Of a stretch of DNA of 64,000 nucleotides, positions 2,787-10,078 are shown in pieces. The translations under genes were made by a program, and so were the position numbers. The DNA lies in the NCBI GenBank assembly GCA_965197925.1, contig CBDAOC010000020.1, positions 864,001 through 928,000 of the forward strand, given 5' to 3'. The stretch is from Nitrososphaerales archaeon. GTDB lineage: Archaea > Thermoproteota > Nitrososphaeria > Nitrososphaerales > UBA213. The notes below the pieces were generated by a model. The model saw only the letters and a program-made list of their open reading frames with translations. It made no database searches and had not been told where the DNA came from. Each line of letters begins with the position of its first letter. Within the stretch, counting starts at the first letter, position 1.

Positions 2787-3983
2787 TTACCCATAATTCT
2801 GCTTGAGAAATTCCTTCACTATCCTATCGCGTATGAAGAAAGTTCCTTTCTTTTCTACCAAATCTACCTTCACTAACTCATTCAGGTAAGGAACAAGAGA
2901 TGTTGTAGGTTCATTGAGTTTTTTGCCAATCTCTGAGTATGACATCCTATCAGATTTAGCTAATTCGGTCAAGATCGAATTTAGCATTGGTCCACCTTGA
3001 GCTCTAGATATTGATTCTGATAGTACATAATTGACATACAATCTCAAAATACCAACAGGTGAAGAAAGTGATTTTTCAATGATTTTAGGTAATGACAGAT
3101 TCGGTTTCCATTCTTCTGCAAGTGCCATAAGGTAGAAAGGATGTCCTCCTACCAAATCAAATGCTTCTTTTGCAAGTTTAGAGTTAGGTTTTTGATCTCT
3201 GTCTTTAAGATATTTGTTGAATAGTTCTATTGCTTCATTTTCTTTCATCTCTCTTATTGGAATTTGAATAAAATGCTGGAATAATGATGATTTTCCCTCT
3301 TGAAGCAAAGTATTAAGTAAATGAACATGCGATCCACAGATTACATAATATACATTTTTGCTTCTTTGTTGTAAAACACCCCGGAATAGATCGATAATAT
3401 TACGAAGTCCTTTGTGACGTTTGAGTTTGATAAGATCTTGGAATTCATCTAAAATAACTACAAATTTCATGCTAGATTCATCTGCTATGGCATTAATAGT
3501 AGCAAATACTGCTTCAAACATAGGACGATAGTCTTTTTCACTATCACCAAACTCTAATTTTGGGAGGACTTTGACTTCACCGGTAGTATCTGTAGATAGT
3601 TCAATCCCTATACCTTTAATTTTTTTAGAGGATAAGGCCCAAGTGATCTTGGAAACCAATTCAAGTTTTTTGGCTTTGACTTTTAATCTTTGAATAGTTC
3701 CTAATTTTTGTAGATAAGCATAAAAAATTGCAGCTTGAAGGTTTTTGAGAAAAGTTTTTGGTTCTCCAAGATTGTACTGAACATCAAAGTTAACGACAAT
3801 GGTTTTTTTATCTGATGATAATATATGCTCTACTTTTTTAAGGATGGAGGATTTGCCAATTCGTCTATATCCAATAAGTACCATATTGTATCCAACTTTA
3901 GATTTAATTTTGGATACAACATTATCTACTTCTTCTACTCTTCCTACTAGATCTTCTGGAGGAGATGGTTTTCCTACATACAT
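2787..3983 (-). CDS. Archaeal AAA+ ATPase with C-terminal winged-helix domain
   Basis: Walker A GYRRIGKS, Walker B VVILDEFQ, GGHPFYL motif, and C-terminal wHTH (SYSEIGKKL...YLNELVKVDLV). Confidence 0.85.
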   Translation of the reverse strand: MYVGKPSPPEDLVGRVEEVDNVVSKIKSKVGYNMVLIGYRRIGKSSILKKVEHILSSDKKTIVVNFDVQYNLGEPKTFLKNLQAAIFYAYLQKLGTIQRLKVKAKKLELVSKITWALSSKKIKGIGIELSTDTTGEVKVLPKLEFGDSEKDYRPMFEAVFATINAIADESSMKFVVILDEFQDLIKLKRHKGLRNIIDLFRGVLQQRSKNVYYVICGSHVHLLNTLLQEGKSSLFQHFIQIPIREMKENEAIELFNKYLKDRDQKPNSKLAKEAFDLVGGHPFYLMALAEEWKPNLSLPKIIEKSLSSPVGILRLYVNYVLSESISRAQGGPMLNSILTELAKSDRMSYSEIGKKLNEPTTSLVPYLNELVKVDLVEKKGTFFIRDRIVKEFLKQNYG

Positions 3984-3992
3984 CTATAACAA

Positions 3993-4024
3993 TATAAGAA
4001 TTCTTATATATAAGAACTCTTATA
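3993..4024. promoter_or_regulatory. Two abutting 16-bp palindromes TATAAGA-NN-TCTTATA upstream of the ATPase start
   Basis: 3993-4008 TATAAGAATTCTTATA and 4009-4024 TATAAGAACTCTTATA, 10 bp upstream of the ATG at 3983. Confidence 0.6.
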
Positions 4025-4128: not shown

Positions 4129-4238
4129 AAGCTCGGGACAGTGAGCGTTTGGGGTTTTGTAGCCACTCCAGTGGCTTACTGCCCAATTTTGATTCGATGG
4201 ACTTGAACTCACATTGGGTTCAAATCCCACCGAGCCTA
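4129..4238 (+). other. tRNA 3' fragment (T-arm plus acceptor strand, att-like) inside a predicted structured element
   Basis: 4215-4238 TGGG-TTCAAAT-CCCAC-CGAGCCTA is a T-psi-C arm plus acceptor strand. Upstream GCTCG can pair with CGAGC, and there is an internal hairpin AGCCACT-CC-AGTGGCT. No canonical D-arm or anticodon arm is present. Confidence 0.55.
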
Positions 4239-4879: not shown

Positions 4880-5680
4880 AATGGGAATTATCTAAGAGAT
4901 GATGTGAGAATATTTAACCTTTTATTGAATAGTTCATTTAAAGTGATTAATTGCTAGACGTATAATCGCATTTATACTAATTTACACAAAAAATAAAATC
5001 ATCAAATATATTTTGCAACTTTCATCCCAATTGAATAGATGAAGGTTCTTACTCAAATTAAATATCATTCGTAAGAAAATGGTAAAACTACAACTAAATG
5101 GAACTAGTACTATGGTCTGAGATAGTAATTACCAAACTAGAAACTTCACAATTTTGTAAGATTATTCTTGACAAGTCACACGGCGGCACATATGCGTGTA
5201 TTTATACGCCCGCGTGTACTCTAATAATATGAAGGCAAGCCTCCAAGTCTGCAAAGGTAAATCCTACACCATCTTTATCTAGTCTATAAAAGCAGAAGAG
5301 ACAAGGGTTAGGTACAGGCAAAGACTCAGGAAGTTCCTTACTGTTGTTTGTCATGATACCGAAAGCCTAGCTGATTTGGGAAGGTCTAACCCAAAGAAGC
5401 TAACGGAAGTCATAATAACTTACATATTGAAGGAGAAGGAACGCGTCAGGTCTAAGGAAATAAAACCTGGTACTCTTGCAGAGAATATCAAACCTGTCAG
5501 ACTCTTTTTCGAAATGAACGACATACTTCTAAACTAGAAGAAACTTTACAGACTCTTGCTAGGGCAGGAAGAGAAAACGGAGGACAGAGCTTATTCAAAG
5601 GAAGAGATTGCAAAACTCCTTGAGTTTGCTGACATTCGATCAACAGTCATCGTCCTTAGTATGGTGAGCTCTGGTTGCAG

Positions 5681-6575
5681 GGTAAGGTAGGGTAAGGTAG
5701 GGTAAGGTAGGGTAAGGTAGGGTAAGGTAGGGTAAGGTAGGGTAAGGTAGGGTAAGGTAGGGTAAGGTAGGGTAAGGTAGGGTAAGGTAGGGTAAGGTAG
5801 GGTAAGGTAGGGTAAGGTAGGGTAAGGTAGGGTAAGGTAGGGTAAGGTAGGGTAAGGTAGGGTAAGGTAGGGTAAGGTAGGGTAAGGTAGGGTAAGGTAG
5901 GGTAAGGTAGGGTAAGGTAGGGTAAGGTAGGGTAAGGTAGGGTAAGGTAGGGTAAGGTAGGGTAAGGTAGGGTAAGGTAGGGTAAGGTAGGGTAAGGTAG
6001 GGTAAGGTAGGGTAAGGTAGGGTAAGGTAGGGTAAGGTAGGGTAAGGTAGGGTAAGGTAGGGTAAGGTAGGGTAAGGTAGGGTAAGGTAGGGTAAGGTAG
6101 GGTAAGGTAGGGTAAGGTAGGGTAAGGTAGGGTAAGGTAGGGTAAGGTAGGGTAAGGTAGGGTAAGGTAGGGTAAGGTAGGGTAAGGTAGGGTAAGGTAG
6201 GGTAAGGTAGGGTAAGGTAGGGTAAGGTAGGGTAAGGTAGGGTAAGGTAGGGTAAGGTAGGGTAAGGTAGGGTAGGGTAAGGTAGGGTAGGGTAAGGTAG
6301 GGTAAGGTAGGGTAAGGTAGGGTAAGGTAGGGTAAGGTAGGGTAAGGTAGGGTAAGGTAGGGTAAGGTAGGGTAAGGTAGGGTAAGGTAGGGTAAGGTAG
6401 GGTAAGGTAGGGTAAGGTAGGGTAAGGTAGGGTAAGGTAGGGTAAGGTAGGGTAAGGTAGGGTAAGGTAGGGTAAGGTAGGGTAAGGTAGGGTAAGGTAG
6501 GGTAAGGTAGGGTAAGGTAGGGTAAGGTAGGGTAAGGTAGGGTAAGGTAGGGTAAGGTAGGGTAAGGTAGGGTAG
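5681..6575 (+). repeat. Tandem array (GGTAAGGTAG)n, about 89 units, i.e. alternating GGTAA/GGTAG pentamers
   Basis: Directly visible. One phase irregularity at 6271-6290. It ends in the native GGTAG of the Arg-Val-Gly codons. Confidence 0.97.
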
Positions 6576-6997
6576 GCGCCCTTCCCAACTTGAAGGTGAA
6601 GGATATCATACCGGTTGAAATTGATGGAAAGGTAGTTTGTAGAAGAATTTGTTTATGCAAATTCGGCAGGGGAACTTGTAACATTCGTGAGCTTAGGGTG
6701 TTATCATGCTATTGAGAATTATTACGAATATAGAAAACGTAATCATGAAAAGCTCAACACGGAATCTCCCTTGTTGCGCGATTCTGTCAGGGTGTACAAC
6801 GTGAAAGAGATAGAACGGTGCAGGCCCCTTGAATAGAACGATCAAGATATCATGAAGACGTACAAATCCGGTCTTAGGGTGAAAATGGATGCTTGCAGAT
6901 ATGGGGTCTCAACTGACCGTGGTTTCCGCAAGTTCTTTAACGCCCAAGCAAAGCTTGCGGAGATGGAACCGCTTCATAAGGAAATGCTCTTGGGTCA

Positions 6998-7156
6998 CAA
7001 AGTAGGACTGGAGAGGAGCCATTATCTGAAAAGATCCGATATCTTGTCGATGTCATCACCTGTCAAAGTAGGACCAGAGAGAAGCTATTATGCAAACAGG
7101 GCCGGGATTGAAATACAGGGTGACAAGCCAGAGTAGGACCAGGAAGGATCTATTAT
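6998..7156 (+). repeat. CRISPR-like array inside the integrase: three 28-bp direct repeats with 38- and 37-bp unique inserts
   Basis: R1 6998-7025 CAAAGTAGGACTGGAGAGGAGCCATTAT; R2 7064-7091 CAAAGTAGGACCAGAGAGAAGCTATTAT; R3 7129-7156 CAGAGTAGGACCAGGAAGGATCTATTAT. Confidence 0.8.
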
Positions 7157-7491
7157 CGATCCCCCTGAGAGTGCCCTTCTGAAAGACTACAGGGTCATGC
7201 CAAATCTTACAATCAACGATGCAGAGCCGGTACGACTTGCCCAGAGTTGAAAAGGGACTGAACTGAAATTGAGCCGCTGAAGGATAAAGTTGCAGGGTTT
7301 GGGGAACTAGCCAAACACCTCAAAGAGCATGGTGTACTGAAGGATACCTCTTTCTAGAATATGCTCAGATCCCCTTGAACCTGAACATGGCTTCTACACA
7401 TGGCAACTAACAAAACCAAATCAATATAATTTTTGTAATCAGGCATCCTGGCTCCGTTGGGCACATCATTTCCACATAAGAGCTTGAACCA

Positions 7492-7595
7492 TATCCGTCC
7501 TCGAACTTCACCCGTAGGGTTTCCAACAGTGTGAATGTTAACACGCGTATTTCCCGACGTCATCTCGGCAATGAGTGCAGACAACATCTTACCAT
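7492..7595 (-). pseudogene. C-terminal fragment of a CHRD-domain gene abutting a CRISPR repeat
   Basis: LIAEMTSGNTRVNIHTVGNPTGEVRGRI matches the CHRD C-terminal signature (G.xYvNiHT..nP.GEiRGqi). Confidence 0.6.
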
Positions 7596-7625
7596 CCTTC
7601 AACCCTGCAATGGTTCGATTCAAAC
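7596..7625 (-). CRISPR. Isolated CRISPR repeat
   Basis: CCTTCAACCCTGCAATGGTTCGATTCAAAC, 26/30 identical to repeat 2 of the 9557 array. Confidence 0.75.
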
Positions 7626-7851
7626 CTATAGTATTTCACCGGGATAAGGAAACAGTGGATAGGCAACCAGCCAGGTATCTAATCCACCGAGTAATGACGG
7701 CAATAAAATTATTGCAAGGTGGAAAATAATATTTTTTAGGCGTGATCCTCTCTGCAAAAATGCAAAATAAGCATTGTTTGAGGATACTTATTTAACCATT
7801 AAGTGCCATAATACGTAGTAAAATCCAAAAAGAAGGCAAGAGATAGATACC

Positions 7852-7882
7852 CTTTCAACCCCTACAATGGTTCGATTCAAAC
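7852..7882 (-). CRISPR. Isolated CRISPR repeat, followed by a possible leader (7883-8179)
   Basis: CTTTCAACCCCTACAATGGTTCGATTCAAAC. The adjacent ~300 bp are non-coding and contain AAACTTTAAG (TATA-like) on the minus strand. Confidence 0.75.
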
Positions 7883-8179
7883 ATATTTCTGCCATTTCTC
7901 TTTATTGGAAAAATATGCCGGACACACCTTGAAATTTTGATCTGAGAATCGATCCAAGGTAAAAGCTGGACTGCCCTAGGCCGTGGTCGTGTATGTATCG
8001 CTCTACGAGATCCTAGAGAATGTCGCTCATGGCCTTCCCCTCCTTTTGAGAAATTCTCTTAAAGTTTGCGATTAAATCTGACTCTGCCGAGAATCCGAAA
8101 CATTCACGATTTTTGTATTTCCGCGGGCGCCCAAACTCCTATCCCTTCCCGTCCATATTTTCTTATATATATATATATA

Positions 8180-9056
8180 CAACTGATCCCAAAACTGATC
8201 ATTTAGTGAATAATTGACGATCATTTGGATCTATTTGCAATGCTGCCCGTAGCAGATCATGAAATTTCAGGAGATAACAGGTGAACAATGGAAGATGATA
8301 TCACCGCATCTCCCCAAGCCAGCCAGAACCGGAAGGCCAAGGGCAGACGACAGAAAGACAGTCAACGGAATCCTGTTTGTCGGGATAACAGGATGCAGGT
8401 GGACTGGGATGTCACAAAGGTACGGCTCCAAATCAACTGCGCACCGCAGACTGCAGAACTGGCAGCGACGTGGAATATGGAAGAATATCCTCTCCGCTGC
8501 AGTCAAATCAGCCCACAGATCAGGCAAGATGCAGCTGCAAAAAACGGTCGATTCGTCATCAGTTCCGGCCAAAAAAGGGGAAGCGTCATAGGATACAACG
8601 GATTCAACAGGATTTCAGGCACAAAAATACACGTTGCGGTGGAACAAAACGGACTGCCAGTCTCAGTAGTAATGTCCTGCAAATCAGCATGACTCTGCAA
8701 GATTTGTAGACGTGATGGATGGCATCTCACAATATCTGGATGAGAGATCTATCAGAAAAATTGCGCGGTGCCAAGCAGACAAGGGCCATGATGCAGAATT
8801 CATCAGGAAATACCTCACCAAAAGAAAAATCTCTGACTGCATGCCTTACAGAAAAAACAGTAAGACACAACAACAAAATGATAATACAGAACAATACCTA
8901 TACGGCAAGACGCGCTATGTTGTGGAGAGATTCTTTGCCTGGTTGAAGAATGGGTTCCACAGAACCAGGATCAGATATGAGAAGAATGCACAAAACTATC
9001 TGGCATTTGTTATCATTTCGTCGATTATGATGTATTGGAGAGTATTGGGATGACTT
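8180..9056 (+). mobile_element. IS5-family element (IS427-like group, type IS5a), orfA/orfB with A6G4 slippery site
   Basis: orfA 8259-8591 (MKFQEIT..W..GRPR..GCRW..STAHRR), AAAAAAGGGG near 8571, orfB with ADKG and RYVVERFFAWLK. TIRs AACTGATCCCAAAAC / GTATTGGGATGACTT. Near-identical copy at 25036-25912. Confidence 0.9.
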
Positions 9057-9154
9057 TAGTATATTTATATGAATTAGTTAGCGTATAATATTCCTGACCG
9101 TCATAAACTGTGTCGCTAAGACCGGGTGACAAAATCCATGTGTAAGGAGATTTA

Positions 9155-9469
9155 TTACATTGAATCGCTTGCGTATTCCGTAAACTCATCGCAGTAATTA
9201 GAAACACTTTCCTCCACCTCTTCACCTTGTAAAGCATCATTGAATAACATCCCGCATAGTTGCATTGTTCCCTCATTCGTTAGACCTTCGACCTCCTCTG
9301 GGGAATAACCAGTAGAATCTATGAATGTGTTAATCTCATTAGCCCATGCACGCACTTCTTCGTCTGATTTCATTATTTCAATTTCAGGCGGCTGTATCAT
9401 GTTCATAATCACAGTACCAGCTATAATTCCAACTATAACAAGCAATATGATTTTTGTATTTTTCTTCAA
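9155..9469 (-). CDS. Small membrane-anchored/secreted hypothetical protein
   Basis: N-terminal TM/signal, acidic body with two Cys, TTG start preceded by AGGAGTGA. Confidence 0.65.
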   Translation of the reverse strand: MKKNTKIILLVIVGIIAGTVIMNMIQPPEIEIMKSDEEVRAWANEINTFIDSTGYSPEEVEGLTNEGTMQLCGMLFNDALQGEEVEESVSNYCDEFTEYASDSM

Positions 9470-9556
9470 ACCAGTATCACTCCTTTACCTGCTCAGCTAC
9501 TCTTATTTATGTTTCTCGTAAACCTGCTCTGAAAATTCTATTTGTTGGTCTTGATT

Positions 9557-9738
9557 CTTTCAATCCTACAATAGTTTGATTCAAACAAAAAGGGTCAGTC
9601 GAAAAGATCGACTACATGACGCCTTTCAATCCTACAATAGTTCGATTCAAACGACTGATGTCAGGTTCCTTCACGGACTGGCACAAATAGCTTTCAATCC
9701 TATAATAGTTCGATTCAAACTAATAGTTCGATTCAAAC
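9557..9738 (-). CRISPR. Orphan CRISPR mini-array: 3 repeats, 2 spacers, plus an 18-bp partial repeat
   Basis: Repeats at 9557-9586, 9623-9652 and 9691-9720 (minus-strand consensus GTTTGAATCGAACTATTGTAGGATTGAAAG, with the canonical ATTGAAAG 3' end). Spacers are 36 and 38 bp. 9721-9738 is TAATAGTTCGATTCAAAC. Confidence 0.9.
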
Positions 9739-9984
9739 TTGGTTAAAATTGTTCATTATTATATGATTGGAATGAATGAATTATTCTCTAATAGCCGGAC
9801 ACCTCGTAGAGTAATTCAAAGACAAACGTTCAACATATGCTTTCTATTGCCTCCTTTACTGGATTACCGCCATCATCGTTTAGAGAACAATCAACTGCGT
9901 TTAGCACAAGTCCACCCTTTGCTGAGCATTTTTATCTTGACTTTCATATTGGGTCATTATCTACCTTTAGGTTATGGTGATATT

Positions 9985-10078
9985 CTCAAAATATTCATCT
10001 ATGTTGATATTGGAGCATATTATACTAACTCAAAATATTCATCTATGTTGATATTGGAGCATATTATACTAACTCAAA
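9985..10078. repeat. 44-bp perfect tandem duplication
   Basis: CTCAAAATATTCATCTATGTTGATATTGGAGCATATTATACTAA x2 plus CTCAAA. Confidence 0.9.

Follow-up and report, generated by a model that had tools for sequence, protein, structure and literature searches.

A probable off-target CRISPR-like array in a tyrosine-integrase pseudogene of a Nitrososphaerales archaeon

Introduction

The origin of new CRISPR arrays and of new repeat families is an open question. Nivala, Shipman and Church in 2018 reportedly described neo-CRISPR arrays resulting from off-target integration by Cas1-Cas2, work that is also covered in PMC7054753 and PMC6698737. The sites at which such arrays form in E. coli resemble the native repeat. 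By the account of Nivala 2018 that is given in bioRxiv 10.1101/148544, the evidence for natural off-target integration is circumstantial and concerns two species. In vitro, the off-target sites attacked by P. furiosus Cas1-Cas2 are bounded by G/C bases at a distance of 30 bp, and they have bases and features in common with the repeat (PMC6698737). In the same organism, spacer adaptation is Cas4-dependent, and protospacer hotspots are found on transposons, mostly IS6, with 36-38-bp spacers taken after CCN (PMC5737086). CCA, or more generally CCN, is a documented I-B PAM (PMC8482600). Among thaumarchaeal elements that carry an integrase, tRNA targets are the commonest (57%; PMC6563490).

The array analysed here lies in a stretch of 64,000 nucleotides (hereafter the window, to which all positions given without a contig name refer). 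It shares with neo-arrays a single-copy empty state, a spacer-sized foreign insert (the second of two) and a host Cas1-Cas2; resemblance of the target to the native repeat was not found.

Results

Structure of the array

The array is made of three direct repeats of 28 bp, all on the forward strand, at 6998..7025, 7064..7091 and 7129..7156, which encode KVGLERSHY, KVGPERSYY and RVGPGRIYY, respectively. Between them lie a 38-bp insert (7026..7063, insert 1, assigned to no strand), whose source was not found, and a 37-bp insert on the forward strand (7092..7128, insert 2), homologous to the 3' ends of IS6/IS240-type DDE transposases of the same archaeal group. The two inserts are unrelated to each other, and the periods are 66 and 65 bp. 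Pairwise identities of the repeats are 24, 21 and 23 of 28 (75-86%), with 8 positions at which the three copies differ among themselves. Coordinates, identities and translations had been proposed in a sequence-only reading of the window, and recomputation gave the same values. The canonical array named in this reading and used here as a size yardstick, a mini-array of three 30-bp repeats at 9557..9720 (reverse strand), does have 36/38-bp spacers and a period of 66/68. The 1-nt slip that the reading saw upon collapse to a single repeat was recovered by tblastn: the gap of 44 codons corresponds to 131 inserted bases and a single additional base immediately behind repeat 3, beyond which the integrase C-terminus resumes. 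The first 66-bp unit is in frame and free of stops, and the second breaks the frame.

The 28-mer target starts with C and finishes with T. In the rest of the 2.91-Mb, 20-contig assembly (G000), the best match to any of the three copies does not exceed 21/28. A hand count on the 8 variable columns gave 8 steps when copies 2 and 3 were sisters, and 9 when copies 1 and 2 were.

The array is likely inert, since its repeats are degenerate and have no significant fold, no Cas6 was found, and promoter-like sites occur at chance level. An Rfam search gave no score near the gathering threshold. Profile searches for Cas6_C, DevR/Cas7 and RAMP proteins had no match in the assembly, which is 98.7% complete; with no Cas6 or Cas7/RAMP gene found, processing of the array into guides would be unlikely. 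Neither the conserved, Cas6-processed repeats nor the effectors that go with a functional CRISPR array were seen.

The host gene and its empty state

The array interrupts a tyrosine-integrase pseudogene (Phage_integrase, PF00589 family) at 5229..7357 on the forward strand. Its nearest intact relatives, the orthologues P0001, P0031 and P0032, share ~92% identity with the N-terminal portion encoded in the window, and the motif GH(K/R)VGLERSYYRPPESALLKDY is present once in each of them, so that the repeat is single-copy in intact integrases, as had been anticipated. In an alignment of 14 sequences, H297 and Y305 are invariant, and R151 likewise. Judging from conservation and from tyrosine-recombinase chemistry, the repeat would cover the codon of the nucleophilic Tyr; P0001 had no sequence match in the PDB, and the catalytic residues were assigned in this way throughout. 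In repeat 1, the invariant Tyr305, the presumed nucleophile, is changed to His.

The motif could be located in 45 integrase loci, two of which are the window's own. None of the other 43 had a second copy above 17/28 within ~300 bp, so that the homology-based objections foreseen in the sequence-only reading, such as intact homologues carrying all three motifs in frame, found no support. JGI metagenomes yielded 33 related loci, the best being 67% identical, and no array was present among those with a locatable motif. Close DNA relatives of the locus were found in 0 of 60 genomes, and viral contigs held no such locus.

Besides the array, the integrase gene carries two stops in its N-terminal half, frameshifts, deletions, a mutated HxxR histidine (HGFR to RGFR) and, at the catalytic Arg codon region (GCRV/GALP), an 895-bp microsatellite made by expansion of a 10-bp unit (5681..6575, forward strand). 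Long near-perfect expansions of short units, including the one at 5681-6575, are frequent in the genome as assembled. Among residues on which P0001 and P0032 agree, 21 of 263 are changed in the window gene outside the array, and a hand count gave 5 of 24 within the repeats. Decay of the repeats is thus no less advanced than elsewhere in the gene, and the inserts would be about as old as this decay, so that they may have been an early lesion. The proposal that the array had destroyed the active site is supported in part: the inserts may have arrived early, but given the stops, frameshifts, deletions, histidine mutation and microsatellite, the array need not be the cause of the integrase's death.

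A likely att remnant of the element (4215..4236, forward strand) sits 1 kb upstream of the integrase. It matches, at 22/22 positions, the 3' terminus of a gene at G000 C19:63080 that is tRNA-like as judged by eye, with no ARAGORN call. An integrase paralogue abuts tRNA-Lys. Both agree with the tRNA targeting that prevails in this group (PMC6563490), and not with an att site in the tyrosine codon.

Several other features were noted in the window. An ATPase-like ORF (2787-3983) lies between palindromic 32-bp repeats at 2721-2752 and 3993-4024. A tandem duplication of 44 bp, without mismatches, is present at 9985-10072. Two solitary degenerate copies of the host 30-bp CRISPR repeat lie on the reverse strand at 7596-7625 and 7853-7882. 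At 7354-7625 lies a putatively CHRD-like remnant that has paralogues elsewhere in the genome and is truncated by a solitary canonical repeat.

Origin of the inserts

The best match of insert 2 in its own genome, 27/37 (73%), is at C19:405372, where a transposase gene of IS6/IS240 type has its 3' end, and none of 100 shuffles reached 27. Pfam likewise returned DDE_Tnp_IS240. Among 400 genomes of the order only one other match was found, with 28/37. A GTDB pattern search with insert 2 and these IS6 ends gave four hits, all of which share the C-terminal motif (23-28/37), one of them reading ADRAGIEIQGDN vs ANRAGIEIQGDK. In viral contigs, insert 2 had 0 matches. The bases preceding the 6 distinct homologues are CCA in four, CCT in one and CAG in one, a remnant. 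CCN thus precedes 5 of the 6 and might be the PAM that was used, a weakly supported reading as the count concerns a single spacer and a conserved Pro codon. No flank motif was common to the donors of the other scars described below.

For insert 1, the best match in its own genome was 25/38, and its six-frame peptides had no convincing match. Plasmids and phages gave only matches with E of 2-6. The best of 109 seeded viral loci reached 28/38, its 16-base seed included, and was judged a chance match. No source was found in 80 stretches of the genome of a relative (G002), and GTDB contained 0 exact matches. Database searches with the inserts, recommended at the outset, thus point to a transposon as the origin of insert 2 and leave insert 1 without a source.

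CRISPR machinery of the genome

The sequence-only reading had suggested a search of the rest of the genome for cas1, cas2 and cas4, and all three are there: a type I-B cas4-cas1-cas2 module stands alone at G000 C20:38914-40652, without an array nearby, and is now frameshifted. Its Cas1b scores 391 bits with TIGR03641 (cut-off 304), Cas2 and Cas4 being adjacent, and it is the only CRISPR-type module in the genome. The cas1 gene contains a tandem duplication of 15 bp and runs into cas2 in another frame; cas4 is without a start. The genome also encodes an intact solo Cas1 of 398 aa, casposase-like, together with several fragments; one solo cas1 fragment lies ~50 bp from a member of the repeat family whose solitary copy truncates the remnant at 7354-7625 (C18:193680-193817).

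Of the three canonical repeat families (30, 31 and 37 bp), nothing but mini-arrays is left; most of their periods are 66-73, and most of their spacers 33-38 bp. The duplication in the integrase gene measures 28 bp vs 30/31 and 37 bp for these canonical repeats, and its period 65/66 vs 66-68. When the target was compared to the three families by global alignment, p ranged from 0.52 to 0.995 in all 9 comparisons, which is no better than random DNA.

Related scars across the genome

The assembly was scanned for repeat-insert-repeat units with periods of 45 to 135, after removal of canonical repeats and tandem regions, identical inserts being collapsed. About ten further scars were found in unrelated genes. 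Fourteen of the 24 non-canonical units had a period of 64-73, and 10 fell at the other 81 periods (P 2.5e-8 vs uniform). The 64-73 interval was chosen after a first look at the data; with the canonical 66-73, the count is 10 of 24, for ~2 expected. In G002, a family member lacking Cas1, the same scan gave 1 unit at 64-73 and 7 elsewhere, in 1.58 of 2.3 Mb; this is the sole control genome, and its assembly is more fragmented.

Twelve units remain besides the two of the array. For seven of them a donor is present elsewhere in the genome, in host-type genes, with matches of 36/36, 34/34, 27/27, 30/33, 32/37, 28/32 and 29/34 (gapped). Empty paralogous sites are available for 4 of the 12, two of these being among the seven with donors, and for two IS-borne scars there are ~75 and ~84 empty siblings vs 4 and 1 filled. 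The scars sit in IS transposases and in ordinary genes, so that the process has no special link with integrases. Their duplications form one group of 26-31 bp and another of 35-37 bp, much like the two size classes of the canonical repeats; insert lengths cluster at ~34-39 bp, apart from one of 27-28. One of seven targets of the long class reached p<0.05 against the host repeats, uncorrected.

The scar at C20:730231 is the cleanest off-target event, and likely the youngest: it has a perfect duplication of 37 bp, an insert of 36 bp that is 36/36 identical to C19:469639, and ~84 empty IS siblings. Another IS transposase, with ~75 empty copies, bears a perfect 36-bp duplication and a 37-bp insert at C17:50384, C20:514583, 515586 and 533472; the scarred IS (4 copies) likely spread after the scar event. 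At C17:116185 and C20:935899 the duplications are also perfect, and the inserts share only 86-88% identity with genes of the host, which by eye are cobalamin-synthesis-like and Cdc6-like. This suggests their capture from the DNA of a related archaeon.

Three of the 12 units are doubtful. Left off the scar list on this ground were C19:152326, which is inside a multi-copy element, C9:2796, which has neither donor nor empty site, and C18:191424. A further candidate, C20:976121, detected in the first scan, was absent from stricter ones.

Discussion

Two probable off-target integrations at a non-CRISPR site

We conclude that two integrations by Cas1-Cas2, off target and at one non-CRISPR site, probably left this fossil neo-array, as the sequence-only reading had proposed. 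The conclusion is supported by the single-copy ancestral motif of intact homologues, the transposon-derived insert 2, the cas4-cas1-cas2 module, the sister scars across the genome and the spacer-like sizes. Cas1-Cas2, with Cas4, would have pasted two spacer-sized pieces, one of them from an IS6-type transposon, into the integrase gene. From the established chemistry of the enzyme, both strands would be attacked in a staggered way ~28 bp apart, and gap filling would duplicate the target. A second integration would then have taken place at one of the two target copies. The enzyme may have been that of the host's I-B module before its frameshifts, or that of a module since lost or carried by an earlier host of the element. 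With processing into guides unlikely, inserts derived from the host itself would escape counter-selection. The link of the scars with Cas1-Cas2 is correlative, the scar excess being absent in one relative that lacks Cas1.

The target's lack of resemblance to the host repeats is a misfit, and so is its duplication length, 2-3 bp below that of the nearest canonical repeat. This could be read in three ways: the cognate system has disappeared, or resided in the element's former host; the target was chosen by a few bases or by DNA shape; or the mechanism was other than Cas1-Cas2.

Alternative explanations

An accident of repair or replication independent of Cas proteins, either template switching or end-joining capture, could duplicate ~28 bp round captured fragments. 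Microsatellite expansions are numerous in this genome, the integrase gene itself containing one, the target is not repeat-like, and the scar duplications vary from 26 to 37 bp, all of which would fit such an accident. We nevertheless consider it unlikely, as insert lengths cluster at ~34-39 bp with a single exception of 27-28, the periods match those of canonical arrays, the same site was struck twice, and the Cas1-less relative has no scar excess.

Insertion of short fragments by the solo, casposase-like Cas1 is very unlikely. A casposase is not known to have a Cas2 ruler that would set inserts of 36-38 bp. Instead of the ~13-bp duplication and TIR-derived insert of a casposase product, we found a duplication of 28 bp and an insert from IS6 coding sequence. 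In its favour, the intact 398-aa protein and several fragments are present in the genome, and short substrates of various kinds are integrated in vitro by a family 1 casposase; the latter enzyme, however, duplicates 13 bp at a specific target, not 26-37 bp (PMC8464041).

That the inserts are chimeric junctions produced during assembly is highly improbable. Contigs were available for 4 of the 22 read runs listed, and none spans the array, but these records are filtered, so the gap proves nothing. The best runs hold 0.94-0.96 of the words of positions 6600-9800, an insert-free allele would give 0.951, and rare IS5 words explain only ~0.011; from these shares, a population without the inserts is conceivable. 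Against an artefact, the repeat copies differ at 8 positions, unlike a misassembly, and nothing elsewhere in the assembly comes closer to insert 2 than 73%. Because the copies differ and insert 2 is without a near-identical source in the assembly, we take the junctions to be real. Two short read-derived pieces are identical to 6849-6999 and 7204-7354. In RNA runs labelled sponge metagenome, 0.21-0.31 of the words are present, a share that the multi-copy IS5 would roughly account for by its size, and no habitat is inferred from them. Contig C16 of the assembly, of 150 kb and with 28 clustered tRNAs, is possibly a large virus or a foreign contig in the bin.

An integrase writing spacer-sized cassettes into an att core within its own catalytic codons, the other proposal of the sequence-only reading, is scarcely credible and largely refuted: integrases split by their own att site do exist (SSV type), and the site here lies within a tyrosine-recombinase gene and was used twice, but 0 of the 43 other loci of the family show an array, so that the recurrent site in or beside the integrase of SSV-type or integron-like systems is not seen, none of the best 150 other matches listed from 400 genomes ends at the Tyr codon (by eye, in a list biased towards intact genes), scars of this kind are also present in IS transposases and other genes, and the tRNA 3'-end match 1 kb upstream, like the paralogue abutting tRNA-Lys, indicates a tRNA-type att elsewhere.

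Significance

Off-target neo-arrays are already known, and off-target integration by Cas1-Cas2, our preferred reading, makes the present case a by-product of a known activity. No report of natural neo-arrays in this archaeal group was found in the literature covered, from which most subscription journals are absent. In this genome some twelve natural events can be studied for which empty states and donors are known. One is the present array, with two spacers at a target that resembles no host repeat, and the choice of target thereby becomes directly testable in vitro. Cas1-Cas2 is likely a natural mutagen here, and the locus a likely natural snapshot of the formation of a CRISPR-style array in an archaeon of the ammonia-oxidising type. 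More tentatively, it is possible, if doubtful, that an orphaned Cas4-Cas1-Cas2, freed from interference genes, writes arrays at repeat-unlike sites with duplications of 26-37 bp, revisits these sites and seeds scars that are spread by IS. If this were true, new repeat families would arise from arbitrary coding sequence and not from repeat look-alikes.

Comparison with known systems

The locus shares with thaumarchaeal tRNA-targeting elements an integrase of the same gene family and a likely tRNA-type att nearby; the accessible part of the work on these elements describes no internal array, and the present copy is a pseudogene (PMC6563490). With family 1 casposons the likeness is in a Cas1-family integrase that duplicates its target, and in the solo Cas1 of the present genome, whereas the family 1 casposase duplicates 13 bp at a fixed target and acts on elements bounded by TIRs (PMC8464041). 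The resemblance to P. furiosus Cas1-Cas2 extends to a presumed paired attack ~30 bp apart, spacers of 36-38 bp, IS6 sources and possibly a CCN PAM (PMC6698737, PMC5737086); unlike the off-target sites given for that enzyme, the present site is of 28 bp, starts with C and ends with T.

With neo-CRISPR arrays, the array has in common a repeat-sized target duplication round spacer-sized fragments at a non-CRISPR chromosomal site. It departs from them in the matter of repeat resemblance, its target being without similarity to the host repeats, unlike the E. coli sites. It differs further in being natural, archaeal and type I-B-associated, in having two spacers, and in the age and divergence of its repeats.
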